Assembly: GCA_963707635.1 (NCBI GenBank)
Contig: OY970173.1
Location: forward strand, 1,984,001-2,048,000
DNA: 64,000 nt
Reading direction: 5' to 3'
Source: Candidatus Latescibacterota bacterium
GTDB lineage: Bacteria > Krumholzibacteriota > Krumholzibacteriia > WVZY01 > JAKEHA01
This document shows positions 15,715 through 28,272 of this stretch, piece after piece; the stretch's first letter is position 1; every line of letters begins with the position of its first letter. The position numbers and the translations under genes are program-made. The notes below the pieces were generated by a model. It did no database searches. It saw only the letters and a list, made by a program, of their open reading frames with translations, and was not told the DNA's origin.

Positions 15715-16399
15715 CGACGCCACGCCCTACCGCGACCTCGCGGCCGTGATTCCGGCCTACAACGCGGGGTCGCACCTCGCCGGCGTGATCGAGCGCGTGG
15801 CGCGCTACGTCCCGCGCGAGCGCGTCGTGGTCGTCGACGACGGCTCCAGCGACGACACGCGCGCCGTGGCAGAGCGCTCGGGGGCGACGGTCGCGGTCCA
15901 CCCGGTAAACCGGGGCAAGGGCGGCGCGATCCGTTCCGGCATCGCGCGCGCGGGCGAGCTCGGTGTGCCCTTCGCCATCCTGCTCGACGCCGACGGGCAG
16001 CACAACCCCGACCAGATCCCGGACTTCGTGGCGCGCCAACGGGCGACGGACGCCGACATGGTGGTGGGGAACCGGCTGGTCAGCGCGGCCAACATGCCGT
16101 GGCTGCGCAAGGCGACCAACTACGTGACGAGCGCGGTGGTGTCGCTGCTGGCGCGCCGGCGGGTTCCGGACTCGCAGAACGGGTACCGCCTCATCCGCCT
16201 CGCGCACTTCGGCAAGTTCCCGCTGACGACCTCCCGCTACGAGATCGAGTCCGAGATGGTCATCCGCGCCGGGCGCGCCGGCGGGAAGATCGCGTCGGTG
16301 CCGGTGGAGACCATCTACGCGGGCGAAGTGAGCTTCATCAATCCATTCGTCGACACCTACCGGTTTTTGCGCATGGTCGCAAAATCGTTCTTCTGGTAG
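15707..16399 (+). CDS. GT2 glycosyltransferase (polyprenyl-phosphate glycosyltransferase-like)
   Basis: IPAYN, VVDDGSSD, NRGKG, LDADGQH, DSQNGYR. Confidence 0.92.
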   Translation: MADDATPYRDLAAVIPAYNAGSHLAGVIERVARYVPRERVVVVDDGSSDDTRAVAERSGATVAVHPVNRGKGGAIRSGIARAGELGVPFAILLDADGQHNPDQIPDFVARQRATDADMVVGNRLVSAANMPWLRKATNYVTSAVVSLLARRRVPDSQNGYRLIRLAHFGKFPLTTSRYEIESEMVIRAGRAGGKIASVPVETIYAGEVSFINPFVDTYRFLRMVAKSFFW

Positions 16400-16431
16400 A
16401 CTGCGGCCTCACGCGTCGCCGCACCGCCCCG

Positions 16432-17181
16432 ATGAACAAGCGCATCCTGATTTCGAACGACGACGGGTTCGACGCGCGCGGACTCAAGGTGCTCGAGCAG
16501 GCGCTGGCCCCGCTCGGCGAGGTGTTCGTGGTGGCGCCGGACTCGGAGCAGAGTGCGAGCAGTCACTCGCTGACCGTGCGCCGGCCGATCGAGGTCAAGC
16601 AGGTCGGGGACCGGCACTACCGCGTCGGCGGAACACCGACCGATTGCGTCGTGCTGGCCCTGCAGGTGATCATGGACCGGCCGCCGGACCTGGTCGTGGG
16701 CGGCATCAATCACGGTCCGAACATGGGGGAGGACGTGGGATACAGCGGCACGGTGGCGGTTGCGTTCGAGGGGACCATCCTCGGCGTCCCGTCGATCGCG
16801 ATTTCGTCGCTGCAGCGCGACGTGGCCGGCGGCGAGGTCATCGGCCGGATCGCTCGGATCGTGGTGGAGCGCGCCCTGGAGCACGGAATCCCGCGGGAGT
16901 CGCTCCTGAACGTCAACGTGCCCAATCCGGACATCGCACCCATCAAGGGGCTGCGAATCACCAAGCTGGGCTCGCGTCACTACGAGAACTTCATCGAGCC
17001 CGGACGCGGGCCGCTACGCTCGCACTACACCATCGGGGGCCGGGACCCGGTGTGGCGCGAGGACGACGGTTCGGACATCGCGGCCGTTCGCATGGGCTAC
17101 GTGTCGATCACGCCGCTGGACCTGGATCAGACCCACTACAAGGCGATCGTCGAGATGGAACGCTGGCGGTTCGAGCTGTGA
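16432..17181 (+). CDS. surE: 5'/3'-nucleotidase SurE
   Basis: ILISNDDG, GGTPTDCV, GINHGPN, YSGTVA, VSITPL. Confidence 0.96.
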   Translation: MNKRILISNDDGFDARGLKVLEQALAPLGEVFVVAPDSEQSASSHSLTVRRPIEVKQVGDRHYRVGGTPTDCVVLALQVIMDRPPDLVVGGINHGPNMGEDVGYSGTVAVAFEGTILGVPSIAISSLQRDVAGGEVIGRIARIVVERALEHGIPRESLLNVNVPNPDIAPIKGLRITKLGSRHYENFIEPGRGPLRSHYTIGGRDPVWREDDGSDIAAVRMGYVSITPLDLDQTHYKAIVEMERWRFEL

Positions 17182-17900
17182 GGTGGCGTCAGTACCGAAT
17201 CGCGCGCGAGCGGATGGTGCGCGACCACGTCTACGCGCGCGGCGTTCGTGACCCGCGCGTGATCGACGCGATGCTGCGCGTGCCTCGCCACCTGTTCATC
17301 GACCGCGACGCCGGCGTCGAAGCATACGCGGACCACTCGTACCCGATTGGATTTCAGCAGACGATGTCGAAGCCGTACATGGTCGCGTACCTGACGGAGC
17401 AGCTTCGACTCGGCGGGGAAGAGCGCGTGCTGGAAATCGGAACCGGGTCCGGCTACCACGCGGCCGTGCTGGCCGGCCTGTGCCGCGAGGTCTACAGCGT
17501 CGAACGGGTCGCCGACCTGGCGGAACGCGCGCTCGCGGTGCTGCGCGATCTCCTGTACGCGAATGTAAACGTGCGGGTCGGGGACGGGGCCGACGGCTGG
17601 CCGGAGCGGGCGCCGTTCGACCGCGTGCTCCTGACCGCCGCGGCCGACCATGTGCCGCGGGCCCTCTTGAACCAGCTCGCCGACGGCGGAGAGTTTCTGG
17701 GCCCGGTGCGGCGGGACGATCGGGGCCAGGAAATTGTCCGGCTCACGCGCCGCGGGGATCGCTTTGAGCTGGAGCGCCTGATCGAGTGCTCCTTCGTCCC
17801 CATGGTGCGCCCGGAGAGCGCCGACGACGAGGCGCGCATGCCCCGGCCGGCGGCGCCGGTCGAGCGCGAGACTTCCGCCGACGCGGGATCGAACGGCTGA
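17178..17900 (+). CDS. pcm: Protein-L-isoaspartate O-methyltransferase
   Basis: VPRHLF, QTMSKPYMVA, VLEIGTGSGY, APFDRVLLTAA; follows surE. Confidence 0.95.
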   Translation: MRWRQYRIARERMVRDHVYARGVRDPRVIDAMLRVPRHLFIDRDAGVEAYADHSYPIGFQQTMSKPYMVAYLTEQLRLGGEERVLEIGTGSGYHAAVLAGLCREVYSVERVADLAERALAVLRDLLYANVNVRVGDGADGWPERAPFDRVLLTAAADHVPRALLNQLADGGEFLGPVRRDDRGQEIVRLTRRGDRFELERLIECSFVPMVRPESADDEARMPRPAAPVERETSADAGSNG

Positions 17901-17922
17901 TCTTTCTACGCGAACTCTTTCC

Positions 17923-17950
17923 TTGATTCGCTCCGAAAACATGTTACGAT
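17923..17950 (+). promoter_or_regulatory. Putative promoter for tRNA-Pro(CGG)-sigma-apt
   Basis: TTGATT-N16-TACGAT with extended -10 TG in an AT-richer gap. Confidence 0.55.
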
Positions 17951-18003
17951 GTATCGACTTAGGTTGGTCCGGGTGTGCCGGACCCGTGCGCGACTCTTGG
18001 GGT

Positions 18004-18081
<78 letters not shown>

Positions 18082-18091
18082 TTATCCTTCC

Positions 18092-18970
18092 ATGGCCGAC
18101 GAACGCCTGAAGCCCGCACCCAAGGACGACGCGCGCGAGCCGTCGTACGACATCCAGGCGCGCTACCTCGCGGAAATCGGGCGCTATCATCTCCTGACCG
18201 CCGAGGAAGAGATTGAATTGGGCCGGCGGCTGGCGAACGGCGACGAAGAGGCCCGCCGCCACCTGATCAACTCCAACCTGCGCCTGGTCGTCACCATCGC
18301 GAAGCGCTACGCGCACCGCGGGCAAACCCTCCTGGACCTGATCGAAGACGGCAACCTCGGCCTGATCCGAGCGGCCACGAAATTCGACTACACCAAGGGA
18401 TTCCGCTTCAGCACCTACGCGTCGTACTGGATCAAGCAGTCGATTCGCCGCGGCGTGGCCAGCCAGTCGCGGCCGTTGCGCATCCCGGTGCACATCTTTC
18501 ATCTGATCAACCGGTACGTGAAGGCGGAGGAACGGCTGCGCACCAAGGGGAAAGCCACGGACGACGAGTCGATGGCGGCGGAGCTGGATGTGAGCGTGCG
18601 CCGGGTCAAGCTGGCGCGCACGCTCGTCGCCGGCATCCGCTCCGAGGACCCGCTGCAGAGCGCCGACGCGCTTCAGCAGCTGGCGTCGGACCCGTACCAC
18701 CTGCACAACGGCTCGCCCGAGGCGCTGGTGACGCTCCAGCTCGAGAACAACGAGATCGCGGATCTGTTCGAGCGCTGCTTGAGCCCGCGCGAACAGGAAG
18801 TCTTGACGCTCCGCTACGGCCTGGCCGACGGGGAGCCGAAGACGCTGGGCGAAGCGGGCCGCGAGGTGGGCGTGTCGCGCGAGCGCGTGCGCCAGATCGA
18901 AAAGCGCGCGCTCCAGAAGCTCAACATCGTGCTCTCGAGCGGCGGCCGCCGGGAAGGCTCGCCGGAATGA
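18092..18970 (+). CDS. Sigma-70 family factor lacking region 1.1 (RpoS-like by synteny)
   Basis: YLAEIGRYHLLTAEEE, NLRLVVTIAKRY, GFRFSTYA, VSRERVRQIE; surE-pcm-sigma-apt order. Confidence 0.92.
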   Translation: MADERLKPAPKDDAREPSYDIQARYLAEIGRYHLLTAEEEIELGRRLANGDEEARRHLINSNLRLVVTIAKRYAHRGQTLLDLIEDGNLGLIRAATKFDYTKGFRFSTYASYWIKQSIRRGVASQSRPLRIPVHIFHLINRYVKAEERLRTKGKATDDESMAAELDVSVRRVKLARTLVAGIRSEDPLQSADALQQLASDPYHLHNGSPEALVTLQLENNEIADLFERCLSPREQEVLTLRYGLADGEPKTLGEAGREVGVSRERVRQIEKRALQKLNIVLSSGGRREGSPE

Positions 18971-19500
18971 GCGCGGAGACGGTGGAACGGGTTCGCGCCG
19001 CCATCCGCGACGTGCCCGATTTCCCCAAGCCGGGTGTGCTCTTCAAGGACATTACACCGGTCTTGAGCGACCCGGCGTTGTTCGTGGACATCGTGGGAAC
19101 CCTGGCCGAACGTTACCGGCCGATGGGCATCGAGAAGATCGCGGCAGTCGAATCACGCGGATTCATCTTCGGAGCGCCGCTTGCCGCGCTGCTGGGCGTG
19201 GGCTTCGTCCCGCTGCGGAAGTTCGGAAAACTCCCGCACGCGACGGTGGCGGAGACGTTCGACCTCGAGTACGGAACCGAGACCCTCGAGATCCACGCCG
19301 ATGCGTTCCGGCCCGGTGAGCGTGTGCTCGTGGTCGACGACCTCCTGGCCACCGGCGGCACGGCGGCGGCGTCGGTCAAGCTGGTGCGCAAGGCGGGCGG
19401 GCAGGTCGTGGAACTGGCCTTCGTGGTGGAGCTGGCCTTGCTCGCCGGCCGGAAGCGCCTGGTCGGGATTCCGGTATACGCGCTGGTGAAGTTCGAGTAG
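18967..19500 (+). CDS. apt: Adenine phosphoribosyltransferase
   Basis: DFPKPGVLFKDI, ESRGF, LEYG, VVDDLLATGGT. Confidence 0.97.
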   Translation: MSAETVERVRAAIRDVPDFPKPGVLFKDITPVLSDPALFVDIVGTLAERYRPMGIEKIAAVESRGFIFGAPLAALLGVGFVPLRKFGKLPHATVAETFDLEYGTETLEIHADAFRPGERVLVVDDLLATGGTAAASVKLVRKAGGQVVELAFVVELALLAGRKRLVGIPVYALVKFE

Positions 19501-19552
19501 GCTTCGCGTTACCAAGTCCTGGCACTGCATCGTGGTCTTGCCGAATCTTCGT

Positions 19553-19629
19553 GGCCCCGTAGCTCAGATGGATAGAGCAGCGGTTTCCTAAACCGTTTGT
19601 CGTGCGTTCGAATCGCGCCGGGGCCACCA
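19553..19629 (+). tRNA. tRNA-Arg(CCT)
   Basis: Acceptor GGCCCCG/CGGGGCC, anticodon arm GCGGT-TT-CCT-AA-ACCGT, GTTCGAATC, CCA. Confidence 0.97.
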
Positions 19630-23215: not shown

Positions 23216-24367
23216 TCAGCGCGGCGGCAGCGTGTCCCGGAAGAAACGCTCCGCGTTCAATCCCATCACCCGCGCGATCTCCTCATCGGAGAATCCCTCC
23301 TGCACCAGCGCGTCCGTGAGGAGCGCGAGCCCGCTCGCGTCGAACGGCGTCCGCACCGCTCCGTCGAAGTCCGACCCGATTGCCACGTGCTCGATTCCGG
23401 CGACCGACACACCGCGCCGGATCGCGCGCGCAATCGCGCGCGCGTCCTCCCCGCACACGGCGGCGTTCCAGAACCCGATCGCGATCAGGCCGCCGTGCGC
23501 CGCAATGCGCGCCAGCTGGTCGTCGGACAGGTTGCGGGGGCCCGGGCAGGTCGACTGCACGCCGGTGTGGGAGACCAGGACCGGCCGCGTGGTTGCCGCG
23601 AGCACGTCGTCGACCGTCGCGGGAGACGCGTGGGCGAGGTCGATGACCCCGCCGAGGGAATCGATGCGCGCCACCACCCGGCGGCCAAACGGCGACAACC
23701 CGCGTCGGCGCCAGCCGTGCGCGGAGCCGCCGACGTCGTTGTCGAACATGTGGGCGATTCCGAAGACGCGAAAGCCGTCGGCAAACAGCGTGTCGACGCG
23801 CGCGAGGTCGCGGGCGACGGGGTGGAGGCCTTCGAGCAGGAGGATGGCTCCGACGGCGTGCCCCGCGGCGAGAGCATCCAGGCCGGCGCGCGTGGTGACG
23901 AGCGAGAGCGCCCCGTCCGAGGCCGCGACCGCGCGCGCGAGCTTCTGCGCCTGAAATCGAGCGCGGGCGAACGGGTCGAACCAGGTGCGCCGCGGCCAGT
24001 GCTGCATCACCGCCAGCGGCGTCATGACGTCGACGACATTGGGCGTGCGCCGGTAATTGGCGGCGATGGGGTTTCTGGTCGGCACCGAGAACACCTGGAG
24101 CGCGACGTGGCCGTCGACGAGGCGGGGAAGGTCGACGTGTCCGCGCGACGAACGAATCAGCAGGTCCCGGTCCCACAGCAGCGCGTCGCAGTGCAGGTCG
24201 GCGATACGCAGGCGCGCGTGCAGCGCGCGCGCGCGCGGCGTGACCTCGGGAGACGCGGTCGCATAGGTGGAGTTGAGCTGTGCGTCGACCCGGTGGGCAA
24301 GGGAACGTCCGCCGAGCCACGCGGCGCCGGCGGCGAGGACGATCACGACGAGATAGCGCCAGAGCAC
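23216..24367 (-). CDS. Membrane dipeptidase (peptidase M19) with N-terminal anchor
   Basis: ADLHCD, LEG, DLAHAS, SHTG, RNLSD, IGSDFDG; start re-assigned to GTG 24367 because the longer ORF runs through a terminated RNA. Confidence 0.88.
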   Translation of the reverse strand: MLWRYLVVIVLAAGAAWLGGRSLAHRVDAQLNSTYATASPEVTPRARALHARLRIADLHCDALLWDRDLLIRSSRGHVDLPRLVDGHVALQVFSVPTRNPIAANYRRTPNVVDVMTPLAVMQHWPRRTWFDPFARARFQAQKLARAVAASDGALSLVTTRAGLDALAAGHAVGAILLLEGLHPVARDLARVDTLFADGFRVFGIAHMFDNDVGGSAHGWRRRGLSPFGRRVVARIDSLGGVIDLAHASPATVDDVLAATTRPVLVSHTGVQSTCPGPRNLSDDQLARIAAHGGLIAIGFWNAAVCGEDARAIARAIRRGVSVAGIEHVAIGSDFDGAVRTPFDASGLALLTDALVQEGFSDEEIARVMGLNAERFFRDTLPPR

Positions 24368-24397
24368 GGCGGGGATGGTAACACCGCGGGACCGCGC

Positions 24398-24531
24398 AAA
24401 AAAAAGAACGAGAGTAGTTCCCCCAACTGCCGTGACGCTAGCGCCCGTCAAGGCCCATGCGGCAACCGCTTCGCTGTCCAATAGCTTGCGAGCAGGACGC
24501 GCACGTACAGGCGAGGGAGTACTCTCGTTGC
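24398..24531 (-). ncRNA. Candidate structured non-coding RNA (~130 nt), family not recognised
   Basis: Ends pair perfectly over 10 bp (24407-24416 with 24520-24529); internal stems; followed by T8; upstream sigma70 promoter. Confidence 0.6.
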
Positions 24532-24539
24532 GAAGAGGG

Positions 24540-24569
24540 AGTATAGTCAGCGACAGGCGAGATTGTCAA
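24540..24569 (-). promoter_or_regulatory. Strong putative sigma70 promoter
   Basis: Minus strand TTGACA-N18-TATACT. Confidence 0.75.
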
Positions 24570-24729
24570 TGATGCCACAATGAATGATCATACTGGCAGG
24601 ACGCCTTGATCCTAGTTTCACATGAGAAGTCAGATTAAGATGACCCGGAGGAGGGGAAGGGGAGAGAGGCTGCGGTGTTCCCAGGTGTCGCGCCTTGTCG
24701 AGCGGGCATCCAGGAACACCGCTCGGGCG

Positions 24730-24777
24730 TTAACGCCTTCTAAGAAACCAGAGCAAATCAATGAGTTCGATCCGCAT
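24730..24777 (-). CDS. Candidate 15-aa micropeptide MRIELIDLLWFLRRR
   Basis: SD AAGGGGGTG 5 nt before ATG, TAA stop, sigma54-type promoter upstream, GC hairpin downstream; below the ORF-track cutoff. Confidence 0.55.
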   Translation of the reverse strand: MRIELIDLLWFLRRR

Positions 24778-24855
24778 GTGGGCACCCCCTTTTCGAGAGT
24801 CACCGGATTAACTCATCGGCGCGGACGCCTATCGGCGTCGCGTCGTGGCGGATCG

Positions 24856-24871
24856 TGCATACCTTGTGCCC
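24856..24871 (-). promoter_or_regulatory. Putative sigma54 (-24/-12) promoter
   Basis: GGGCACAAGGTATGCA: GG-N10-GC with GGCAC and TGCA. Confidence 0.6.
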
Positions 24872-24911
24872 TGGGGTAGGCCAACTGGGGTGCGTGGTTC
24901 CGAGTGATGCC

Positions 24912-27425
24912 TTAACTGGCTTTGCGATATGCAATTACGCTCGTGATGTCATCTTCCTGATTGCCCCCTCCGAAGGCCAGGACGTTCTCAAGCAGTGCAT
25001 TCTGCAGGGCCTGGGCCGGTAGGTTTCGATTCGCCCGCAGGAACGCAATCAGCCGCTCCTCGCCATAAAGCTCGCCGTCGGGGCTGCGCTGCTCGGTGAC
25101 CCCGTCGGTATAGAGGAGAAGCAGGTCGCCGGGCCGGAAGGACACCGTCCCCTCGTCGTAGCGATGGTGGCGGTTCGCTCCCAGCACGGTCCCGCCGTTT
25201 CCCAGCCGGTCGATGAACCCGTTGGTGGCGAACAGCGCCGGGCACTGGCCGGCGCTCGAAAACGTGAAGGTGGATCCGTCGAGGTCGAGCACGCCGCAGA
25301 AAAACGTGGCGAACTGCCCGGGCTTGGCGTGTTCGACGAGGTAGTCGTTGAGCTCCTGATTCAGCTCGGAAGGGGCGAGTCGTCCCTTGAGAGCGCGGTT
25401 CTTGAACACGGCCTGGAGGGACGCCATCAGCATGGCTGCCGGCACCCCTTTTCCAATCACGTCCCCGATTGCCAGCACGACCCGGTGATCGTCGAGGGGG
25501 AAGTAGTCGAAGTAGTCGCCCCCGACCTCGCTCGAGCTGACCATCTGCCCGAGTATCTCGACCCCGCGCAGGTGCGGCGACTCGGCGGGCAGGAGCGCCT
25601 GCTGGATATCGCGGGCCAGCATGACCTCGCTCTTCAGGCGCTCTTTGTCGATGGATGAGCGGATCAGGTCGGCGTTCTCGATCACCAGCGCGAGCTGGTC
25701 CGCGAAGGTCTCCAGGAGGTCGCCGTCCGCGCGCCGGTAGACGAGGCCCGATCGTTTGGGACCGAACAGGGCGAGACCCAGCAGCCGGTCCGGCGCGGCG
25801 ATGGGGACGCACACGGCCAGCGAGGGGACCGCGAGCAGCGAGCGCGAGTCGGCGTCGAGGTGCGGCCGCTCCCAGGAGCGGTCCAGGAATTCCACCATCA
25901 GCGGCGTACGGTAGCGCGTGAGGTATCGGCCGAGGAACGAGTCCGGGTTGAACGACTCCGGCAGCGGTGGGGCGGCCTGGTAGACGCGCTCCCGGCGCAG
26001 GTCGTGCTCTTCGCCCTTCAAGTAGATCGCGACGAAGGAGGGATGCAACAGCGCCTCGCAGCGCTCGAGGAAATGATCCACGATCTCGTCGCGGGTCAGC
26101 GTCCGCGCGACCCGGCGGCCGAAATCGACGACCTCCTGCTGGTAGGTGAATTCCACTCGATAGAACATCCGGTCGACGGCGCCCTGGATCCGCTGGCGAA
26201 TGGGCGCGAATACGATCGCCAGCACGAGCACCGCGATCGGCAGCCAGACAAACTCGCTGACGCCGAACTGGCGGGAGAGGAACGCGCCGGCGGTCTGCAC
26301 GACGACGTAGTAGCCCGCCGCGAGCACGCCGGTGAGCACCGCGTACACGAGGCTCTTGCGCACCACCGTATCCAGCTCGATCGCCCCGTGCTTGAGAATG
26401 GCGTAGGCGAACGTGATCGGCACGAACCCGAGGCAAAGCGCGGTGAGGATGGTCGCCGAGTCCGCCGACCCGGGGCGTATGGCTGAGTAGAGCGTGGCCG
26501 CGAGGAAGGGGCCCAGACCGACGACGGTGCCTGCGATTACGACGCGGAGTTTCTGCTTCTGCGCGCCGGGAGCCGTTCGGTAGGACCGGATGACGATCAC
26601 CAGCGACGCGACCAGGTACGCGGCGAAATACGCGGTCGACAGCGCGAGCACCACCGTTTCCGCGGTCTCGCCCGGCGAGTGGAAGCTGAAGCGGCGCACG
26701 GTGACGAACGCGCTGACGGCGAGGATCGCCACCGGCGGCAGGTAAAGCCACACCGAGCGCCGCACGGGCGATCCGTTTTCCCGCGGCCCCCGGTCCGGAA
26801 AGCGCAGGAAGAAGTGGAGCAGTACCGCGGGGAAGAGGAGCATGACCGCGTCCCAGAAGAGTTCGCCGCCCAGCTGGAAGGCGGTGCTCTCCGTGGACGG
26901 GCGGTCGGTCAGGAAAAATGCGAGCATCCACGAGTTCACAGTGAAGAGCGTGCCCAGCACGTCGTTGCGCCGGACGAAAACCCCGAGCCCGACGGCCAGG
27001 AACGCGATCGCGGTCACGAGCAGCACCATGCGCTCGAGCAGGAGGTTCTGGGGCACGGTGGCGTACCGCACCGTCTCGCGCAGTGCGACGCCGTGGCGGT
27101 GGAGCTCGTACGTCTGCGGCGCGTGCGCGGCGTTGCGGGTGACCGCACTCTGGTAATGGGCGCGATTGCGAAGGCGCTCGCCGTCCACGGCGACGATCAC
27201 GTCGCCGGGCTGAATGTTCGCGGAGGCGTTGGGGCCGTCGGCGGCGACACGCTGCACGACGAGGTTACGGGTCTCGATGCCGGAATACGGCGCACTCCAG
27301 CGCTCGCGCAGCCCGGGGAACTCGAGGACCACGACGGCCAGGAGGAAGAGCAGCAGCGTCGGCCGGAAAACCGAGGCGATTCGGTGATGGGTGCGGGCCG
27401 GTTGGGCCCTGGACGGCGAGTTCAC
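24912..27425 (-). CDS. PP2C/SpoIIE-family phosphatase with PDZ, multi-TM sensor and GAF domains
   Basis: IQPGDVIVAVDG PDZ; several TM helices; ARDIQQALLP, VGGDYFD, GDVIGKG, YTDGVTE, DDIT; GTG start after GGAGG. Confidence 0.92.
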   Translation of the reverse strand: MNSPSRAQPARTHHRIASVFRPTLLLFLLAVVVLEFPGLRERWSAPYSGIETRNLVVQRVAADGPNASANIQPGDVIVAVDGERLRNRAHYQSAVTRNAAHAPQTYELHRHGVALRETVRYATVPQNLLLERMVLLVTAIAFLAVGLGVFVRRNDVLGTLFTVNSWMLAFFLTDRPSTESTAFQLGGELFWDAVMLLFPAVLLHFFLRFPDRGPRENGSPVRRSVWLYLPPVAILAVSAFVTVRRFSFHSPGETAETVVLALSTAYFAAYLVASLVIVIRSYRTAPGAQKQKLRVVIAGTVVGLGPFLAATLYSAIRPGSADSATILTALCLGFVPITFAYAILKHGAIELDTVVRKSLVYAVLTGVLAAGYYVVVQTAGAFLSRQFGVSEFVWLPIAVLVLAIVFAPIRQRIQGAVDRMFYRVEFTYQQEVVDFGRRVARTLTRDEIVDHFLERCEALLHPSFVAIYLKGEEHDLRRERVYQAAPPLPESFNPDSFLGRYLTRYRTPLMVEFLDRSWERPHLDADSRSLLAVPSLAVCVPIAAPDRLLGLALFGPKRSGLVYRRADGDLLETFADQLALVIENADLIRSSIDKERLKSEVMLARDIQQALLPAESPHLRGVEILGQMVSSSEVGGDYFDYFPLDDHRVVLAIGDVIGKGVPAAMLMASLQAVFKNRALKGRLAPSELNQELNDYLVEHAKPGQFATFFCGVLDLDGSTFTFSSAGQCPALFATNGFIDRLGNGGTVLGANRHHRYDEGTVSFRPGDLLLLYTDGVTEQRSPDGELYGEERLIAFLRANRNLPAQALQNALLENVLAFGGGNQEDDITSVIAYRKAS

Positions 27426-27527
27426 CGGTGTCCTCCGAGCGGGTGCGGGATCGGGGTGGATGAAGCGTGAGGACCCGGCGCACGCGGTGTCAACGGTTTT
27501 CACCGTCGGGGGCGGCCGAGGAAGCGC

Positions 27528-27606: not shown

Positions 27607-28272
27607 ATGACGACCACCGCACGACGCGCGAAAAAGAGCCTGAAAGAAGACCAGCTGGTCACCACCACCTTCCGGCTGACGGAATGGGCACAGGAGCATT
27701 TCAACCAGGTCATCATCGGCGTGGTGGCGCTGGTGGCCGTGGTGGCGGTGCTCGTATTCGCGTCTAACAGCCGGGAGAGCAGCGCGCGGGACGCGGAACG
27801 CGAGATCGGCTCGGCGCTCCTCCTGTACCAGCGGGGCGAGTTCGGTGCGGCGGGGACGACGTTCCAGCAGATCTACGATCGTCACAAGGGCAAGCAGGCG
27901 ACGGCGGCGAGGTTCTTCAAGGCCGAGTGCGACCTGCGCCTGGGCAACTACCGGCAGGCGGTCGACGAATACGACGGCTATCTGGAGAAGCGCGCCGACT
28001 ATCCGCTGTTCGAATCAGCGGCGGCGATCGGAAAGGCGCTCGCGTGGGAGGGTCTTCAGAACTATCCCGAAGCCGCGAAGACGATGGCGGAGGCGATCAA
28101 CACGCTCCCGAAGGAAGACCCGCGCTATTTTGATACTGTGTTTCAGGCCGCTGATTTTTACATGAAGGCCGGAAACTCAAGCGAGGCCCTCAAGTTCTAC
28201 GAGGTGGTGGCGGCGGACGGCACCGGCGAGCTCAAGTCGCGTGCCTCGGTCGCCGTCGCGATGCTGAAGTAG
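27607..28272 (+). CDS. Membrane-anchored TPR protein (YfgM-like)
   Basis: KKSLKEDQL N-terminus, single TM helix, TPR helices. Confidence 0.8.
   Translation: MTTTARRAKKSLKEDQLVTTTFRLTEWAQEHFNQVIIGVVALVAVVAVLVFASNSRESSARDAEREIGSALLLYQRGEFGAAGTTFQQIYDRHKGKQATAARFFKAECDLRLGNYRQAVDEYDGYLEKRADYPLFESAAAIGKALAWEGLQNYPEAAKTMAEAINTLPKEDPRYFDTVFQAADFYMKAGNSSEALKFYEVVAADGTGELKSRASVAVAMLK

Follow-up and report, generated by a model that had tools for sequence, protein, structure and literature searches.

The question raised by this locus is what is encoded by some 130 nt of the minus strand lying in front of a dipeptidase gene in the window (the whole stretch of 64,000 nt analysed, from the genome here called G000). 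An earlier reading, made from the letters only, had proposed either a novel stand-alone small RNA with its own promoter or a riboswitch or attenuator controlling read-through into the dipeptidase. The first of these is backed by conservation, single copy number, covariation and absence from Rfam, and the RNA almost certainly represents a real new family of conserved, structured RNAs; what it might do is the harder part, and a likeness to 6S RNA gives the best lead.

An RNA gene and its fold

The gene comprises the following elements:

24564..24569, minus strand: −35 box of a sigma-70-type promoter; a TTGAC box lies within 60 nt upstream in 78/78 homologous loci
24540..24545, minus strand: −10 box, at the same distance in homologs; predicted transcription start near 24533
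24398..24533, minus strand: RNA gene of about 130–135 nt, conserved from 24529 and delimited by the blast ends of relatives and by models R1–R3
24398..24405, minus strand: U8 tract, the likely terminator tail, directly after the terminal helix P1

The promoter, already recognized in the sequence-only reading, has a spacer of 18 nt and departs from the sigma-70 consensus in one of 12 positions; a score of at least 11/12 is reached by just 24 sites, this one among them, in the 3.2 Mb of the genome, and two promoter-like sites occur in the 1.4 kb around the RNA where 0.1 would be expected. A weaker promoter-like site (9/12) on the plus strand, 24563–24591, overlaps the −35 box. The paired ends of the RNA (24529–24520 with 24416–24407) and the U8 tract are likewise present where they had been claimed. 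The U-rich tail is found in 49 of 78 homologous loci and is mostly missing from f5 and f3 (f1 to f9 being our labels for families), where a separate hairpin follows. Folding of the 133-nt segment yields −62.2 kcal/mol (z −4.55; none of 200 shuffles is equally stable), against −49.2 for the opposite strand. The open reading frame of the dipeptidase is called from a TTG at 24481, that is, inside the RNA; because the peptidase domain begins only at residue 87 and relatives start about 40 codons later, this N-terminal extension is spurious, as had been suspected, and hides the RNA.

That the RNA matches no known consensus family was also borne out by the Rfam search which that reading had proposed: there is no match at the RNA at gathering score in a scan of the whole window, nothing meaningful at E≤10 over 24300–24950, and all scans, with diverged members included, returned only tRNAs and sub-threshold chance matches, the best of which is a fragment of an L31 leader (E 0.015). 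The 6S, SRP, tmRNA, RNase P and 5S genes of G000 are all elsewhere in the genome. Literature searches on Krumholzibacteri with noncoding RNA or 6S RNA found nothing, and those on Latescibacter with structured RNA nothing relevant.

From the fold and the alignment of homologs the RNA can be divided as follows:

24520..24529, minus strand: terminal helix P1, 5′ strand, an extra outer helix that 6S RNA does not have (fold, pair counts)
24483..24519, minus strand: 6S-like closing stem P2 to P6, 5′ strand (MAFFT with the 5′ part of 6S RNAs, pair counts)
24475..24482, minus strand: asymmetric bubble, 5′ strand (variable, unpaired columns), with the predicted template start of product RNAs (pRNAs) at 24481–24480
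24459..24474, minus strand: apical hairpin P7, built of 3 bp, an AA bulge, 2 bp and a tetraloop; 6S has its apical arm of ~80 nt at this point
24456..24458, minus strand: bubble, 3′ strand, 3–4 nt (unpaired columns)
24418..24455, minus strand: 6S-like closing stem, 3′ strand (pair counts, MAFFT)
24407..24416, minus strand: terminal helix P1, 3′ strand (fold, pair counts)

The fold is an unbranched rod in which the terminal helix is followed by an irregular P2, P3, an internal loop, P4, a bulge and P5, and then by a small loop, P6, the lopsided bubble and the apical hairpin. As predicted from the alignment, the bubble is unpaired over about 5–12 nt on its 5′ strand and over only 3–4 nt on its 3′ strand, and the apical hairpin beyond it measures 16–20 nt. 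Among 52 diverse members the 27 proposed pairs are formed in 86.5% of cells and 19 of them have changes on both sides, values which none of 500 shuffles reach (slid controls give 32–49%); the control takes no account of relatedness, and the structure itself comes from the same 52 sequences, so that the figures are support rather than a p-value. P1 alone has seven pairs, five of them changed on both sides. In the paired columns 166 cells hold G-U and 41 hold A-C, and this excess fixes the strand of the RNA as minus. The cells of P7 are paired in 216 of 218 cases in the 44 members outside f3; the apex shows little covariation because it is nearly invariant there, most of its positions being unchanged, while f3 has a different apical hairpin of different sequence. 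The most invariant nucleotides of the whole RNA lie in P6–P7 and in P3, within short helices.

The three inner helices drawn in the sequence-only reading do not hold. Across 44 homologs their shares of paired cells are 21%, 65% and 57%, and only 1, 7 and 2 of the 44 rows have the respective helix in full, so that they are not conserved; in the same 44 the share is 90% for the terminal stem and 91–99% for the helices of the revised model. A three-way junction, considered as the fold, was replaced by the unbranched rod; it was the f3 members that revealed the pairing of P6.

Likeness to 6S RNA

The RNA had further been said not to be 6S. This is right for the Rfam model, as RF00013 at E≤10 has no match for the RNA or for members from f5 and f3, but it overlooks that the closing stem resembles that of 6S helix by helix. 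Both the Rfam 6S consensus and the 6S RNA of G000 have a bulged helix, an internal loop, a 4-bp helix with a 3′ bulge and a bubble-closing helix, and the new family has the identical series up to the bubble. Short motifs in both strands of P3 and in the helix before the bubble are common to the RNA and the 6S RNAs of the phylum. In a MAFFT alignment of six 6S RNAs with nine members, both halves of the closing stem were aligned for five of the six, with a gap at the apical arm; for the 6S RNA of f3 the 5′ half alone was aligned.

A five-block sequence profile of the new family, which has no pairing term, ranks the RNA first and the 6S locus fourth genome-wide in G000; its blocks and spacers were picked after the likeness had been noticed, and further 6S genes were then collected by synteny (from six of eight genomes tried), with E. 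coli ssrS added. The 6S RNAs of G012, G013 and G080 score 30.8–33.6 (0/500 shuffles) and are among the top 2–11 of 35,592 genome windows; since those of G012 and G013 are near-copies of that of G000 (88–90% identical), G080 is the only independent strong case. Scores of 14–18, reached by 17–37 of 500 shuffles, were obtained for the 6S RNAs of G054, G073 and G056 (f6 and f3) and of E. coli; of 11 control stretches, one (half of tmRNA) was at 9/500 and the others at 87 or more. The likeness of the closing stem is strong, that is, against the 6S RNAs of f1 and f5, and weak against those of f6, f3 and E. coli. A reciprocal profile made from eight 6S RNAs finds 13 of the 52 members at no more than 2/200 shuffles; none of the members is top of its genome, and the RNA itself is at place 856 of 35,592 windows. 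Model R3 gave no score on the 6S gene.

The spacing on the 5′ side is similar, 14–18 nt versus 18–21 nt in 6S, and the inner part measures 25–34 nt in the RNA versus 94–104 nt in 6S. The third base after P6, where the template is predicted to start, is a pyrimidine in 37/52 members and in 8/8 6S RNAs. What defines 6S RNAs is a conserved length together with binding of the housekeeping holoenzyme. With 6S (SsrS, RF00013) the RNA shares the rod with paired ends, the series of closing-stem helices leading to the bubble, with conserved helices beside it, and, in most members, the pyrimidine; it differs in its extra outer helix, its short 3′ bubble strand, its length (about 125–145 nt versus 176–187 nt) and its place, canonical 6S being encoded at the zapA locus and the RNA elsewhere. 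It does not reach the gathering threshold of RF00013, has neither the 6S length of ~160–200 nt nor the long −35-like apical stem, and is thus outside RF00013. Taken over both strands, the likeness suggests that the RNA and 6S are probably of common descent.

Several known RNAs invite comparison. The 6S-2 RNA of Bacillus subtilis is full length, and the RNA differs from it in being without the apical arm. What the two have in common, also with second copies in other Firmicutes, is a second 6S-type gene beside the canonical one (PMC8414754 and PMC11077062). Closer in shape are the engineered 6S78 and 6S82cp, which have a bubble with short arms and no −35-like region and which cycle in vitro (PMC8876501); these are artificial, with both arms trimmed and a full-size bubble, whereas the RNA is natural and only its apical arm is short. 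Ms1, CoRP and scr0792 are, like the RNA, lineage-restricted and structured, and bind polymerase, CoRP being encoded between tRNA genes (PMC11077062); by the same source they are actinobacterial and of about 300, 516 and 85 nt, and in a comparison of sequences made via Rfam they do not match. Small SRP (4.5S) RNA (RF00169) is also a rod without branches, comparable in size and conserved at its apex; identity with it was rejected, as the SRP RNA of G000 is encoded elsewhere and is at background with the family profile, and the locus has no RF00169 score at E≤10. No published account of the RNA, or of a natural 6S RNA without apical arm, was found in the literature outside subscription journals and supplementary motif lists.

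Separate from the RNA, 6S-like RNAs were seen at the zapA locus in f6 and f3 (L414:13296–13478, L416:17796–17980 and L419:17559–17740); these do not reach the gathering score of Rfam, and annotation of canonical 6S in the phylum is incomplete. The Rfam model is blind to such shortened copies as the one described here, and others may be unannotated elsewhere.

Distribution in the class and beyond

By blast the region of the RNA is found in 31 of 35 genomes of the same order, with matches that begin and end at the ends of the RNA (a 32nd, of 21 nt, is a chance match and was left out). Homologs were then sought with three rounds of covariance models (R1–R3), the last of which finds, at E≤0.05, one copy each in 76 of the 151 genomes of the class, the genomes whose members built the model matching by construction; 75 were counted, leaving out a weak match in G085. 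By family, the RNA is present in 19/22 genomes of f1, 12/13 of f2, 27/35 of f5, 11/12 of f6 and 1/1 of f9, and in 1/7 of f8, 3/43 of f3, 0/7 of f4 and 0/10 of f7. With the flanking gene for a TPR protein as anchor, diverged copies were recovered at 7 of 16 f3 loci.

A pattern scan of GTDB representatives gave at least 118 loci, among which 44 are full matches to model R2; the remaining ones among those listed are short chance matches. In metagenomes 46 of 49 loci were positive. Submitters had labelled the positive loci Krumholzibacteriota, Latescibacterota or unclassified, with the exceptions of L150 and L164, which are labelled otherwise, and the record titles of these positives point to Ca. 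Krumholzibacteriota. Viral contigs searched with the core pattern gave no match, none of 121 genomes from a different phylum, to which L199 (titled Gemmatirosa) belongs, contained a copy, a loose P3 pattern run across the phylum returned noise only, and the weak model matches L302–L305 were rejected as chance. In an RpoB tree (FastTree, 27 rows, a single gene) the families are arranged as (f3,f7) versus ((f4,f6),((f5,f8),(f1,f2))); given this order, the ancestor of the group probably had the RNA already, and several losses followed.

Possible function, partner and neighbourhood

By analogy with 6S, the RNA may be a truncated 6S paralog that is 6S-like in action, binding RNA polymerase as a mimic of an open promoter; to this reading we give an even chance. 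A 6S gene would have been duplicated, and the copy would have kept the closing stem and the bubble and shed the long arm that contacts sigma, leaving an RNA which acts as a decoy promoter for RNA polymerase. Its bubble would enter the active site of the polymerase, with P6–P3 in the downstream channel; synthesis of short product RNAs would begin near 24481–24480, a prediction about equally apt to hold or to fail.

Published work bears on this from two sides. B. subtilis 6S-1 trimmed to the bubble and short arms still binds and releases polymerase with ~10-fold lower affinity (PMC8876501), yet loss of the distal apical stem abolishes binding of E. coli 6S (earlier work cited in PMC8876501); because the trimmed 6S-1 still cycles while E. 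coli 6S needs its arm, a weak or redirected binder of polymerase is plausible. Further, PMC11077062 has ~160 nt among the shortest 6S RNAs, reports that each species has a single type of abundant RNA that binds polymerase, and states that 6S-2 binds the housekeeping holoenzyme. If the reading as a truncated 6S is true, an armless natural paralog present across most orders would show what the promoter mimic can do without in vivo, and would open to test whether an alternative sigma factor or the core polymerase can be the target of an RNA of the 6S type; even without this reading, the RNA is a new family supported by covariation.

A candidate for a redirected target is encoded in the window:

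18092..18970, plus strand: gene of an RpoS-like group-2 sigma factor, candidate partner (best NCBIfam match RpoS, below cut-off)

This sigma factor belongs to a clade of its own (support 100/99) with members from f1, f2, f5, f6 and f8, and 82 of 208 genomes have it at E≤1e-53: 19/22 of f1, 11/13 of f2, 32/43 of f5, 10/12 of f6, 1/1 of f9 and 7/8 of f8, with 0/7 in f4, 0/10 in f7 and 1/91 in f3, where the match falls outside the clade. Lineages without the sigma factor have either no RNA or, in part of f3, an RNA with changed apex. The intact RNA thus co-occurs with the clade, an agreement that amounts to only about two independent losses on the single-gene RpoB tree; f8 keeps the sigma factor mostly without the RNA, seven f3 loci have an RNA but no sigma factor of the clade, and genes that are neighbours can disappear jointly. 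RpoS-type sigma factors depend less on the −35 box. It is conceivable, if rather doubtful, that the RNA prefers the holoenzyme with the neighbouring RpoS-like sigma factor over that with the housekeeping sigma factor. Loss of the arm for region 4 of sigma-70 would then have turned the duplicate toward the RpoS-like polymerase; the RNA would be a natural mini-6S, an ancient duplicate serving as decoy for the RpoS-like holoenzyme, and each of the two holoenzymes would have a 6S RNA of its own, a proposal which we make only tentatively and hold to be on the unlikely side.

Another protein altogether may be the partner: the RNA would be a stand-alone decoy or scaffold that binds it via the conserved apex, its 6S ancestry being a relic or the likeness convergent. 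This is a possibility of some substance, if one we consider somewhat unlikely. The most invariant nucleotides are in the short helices P6–P7 and P3 and not in an open seed, the bubble is small and lopsided, and Rfam gives no 6S match, all of which would suit such a role; to be set against this is the 6S likeness, which spans both strands and is in order, together with the absence of familiar candidates, as neither Ro60 (TROVE) in G000 nor Hfq in 5/5 genomes was found. Membership in the bacterial Y RNAs fails on the first of these (no Ro60 in G000, which is 96% complete; the control was positive in 2/14 genomes).

Pairing in trans with mRNAs, for example that of the neighbouring sigma gene, is improbable. 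The RNA has its own promoter, a U-rich 3′ end and a nearly invariant apical stretch of 30 nt, as an RNA of this kind might; the invariant stretch is paired, however, and leaves no open seed, and with Hfq absent from the five genomes the RNA fails as a member of the Hfq-dependent small RNAs. In addition, exact matches elsewhere in the genome are no longer than 16 nt (14–16 nt for shuffles), and between the apex and the start region of the sigma gene complementarity is no better than in shuffles for most of 24 loci; L088 is an outlier and L098 a slicing artefact.

The neighbourhood, surveyed at 78 loci from 78 genomes, decides on the riboswitch. Usually the order is phosphatase gene, small open reading frame and RNA, and then, facing the RNA, tRNA-Arg, apt and the RpoS-like sigma gene. 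In f3 the RNA is flanked by the TPR gene and tRNA-Arg, away from phosphatase gene and small open reading frame. Five f5 loci (L092–L096, genus g20) have the block of small open reading frame and RNA, which sits between tRNA-Arg and the phosphatase gene, in inverted orientation, and the RNA there faces the 3′ end of the phosphatase gene. A dipeptidase gene is downstream in 12/78 loci, all in the genus of the window (three further loci of this genus end too early to judge), and a convergent tRNA-Arg is within 400 nt in 30/78. Because the neighbouring genes differ in this way, the RNA is not a cis element of one gene, and for the family as a whole a riboswitch or attenuator governing read-through into the dipeptidase is contradicted; the alternative helices proposed for it, complete in 1–7 of 44 rows, are not conserved either. 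What speaks for it is confined to the genus of the window, where the dipeptidase starts ~30 nt past the U tract, and to contigs of relatives from RNA libraries which span the U tract into the dipeptidase, some read-through thus being possible; we consider this explanation extremely unlikely.

These contigs come from eight RNA runs of five studies that hold part of the stretch, all as assembled contigs with small word shares. In six of the eight (three studies) contigs of relatives cover the RNA gene, at a depth of 2.3–4.6, not above that of neighbouring genes. Among the pieces listed, 6/6 run past the U tract and one also far past the promoter side, which could be carry-over of DNA or read-through into the dipeptidase. 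Metatranscriptome libraries commonly lose RNAs of ~130 nt; contigs of such low depth give no support to a high abundance of the RNA.

The small open reading frame (24730–24777, minus strand, 15 codons) encodes a hydrophobic peptide with a conserved motif, D-L-L-W-W/F-L-R, at its end. One might take it for the toxin of a type I toxin-antitoxin pair and the RNA for the antitoxin, as it lies 200–400 nt upstream in most loci and has moved with the RNA in one inversion; with both on the same strand and no overlap, the peptide present without the RNA in f8 and at f3 phosphatase loci, and the f3 RNAs apart from the peptide, there is next to no chance of this.

The peptide gene has features of its own: a strong ribosome-binding site (24785–24791), a sigma-54-like promoter of the form GG-N10-GC (24856–24870), and a conserved hairpin behind (24672–24722). 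Of 96 loci examined, which are at the phosphatase gene or close to it, 88 have the peptide gene and 74 also the promoter pattern, and it is more widespread than the RNA; its product is a phylum-wide small membrane peptide, which perhaps regulates the phosphatase. The latter (24912–27503, minus strand) is a PDZ-7TM-GAF-SpoIIE (PP2C) protein whose N-terminal part is weakly like the PEP-CTERM kinase PrsK, and the divergent TPR gene (27607–28272) is weakly like PrsT. On the other side, about 16100–19629 (plus strand), two genes, presumably surE and pcm as judged by eye, are followed by tRNA-Pro, the RpoS-like sigma gene, apt and tRNA-Arg, which looks like an rpoS-type neighbourhood outside the Proteobacteria.

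Two observations concern the genome at large. The rpoB gene of G000 (C1:281226–284991, outside the window) is split into two frames near 283414, probably by an indel of the assembly, and oddities of single bases in this genome thus need caution. ARAGORN finds only two tRNAs with a CAU anticodon in G000, where three are usual, plus one tRNA-Sec.
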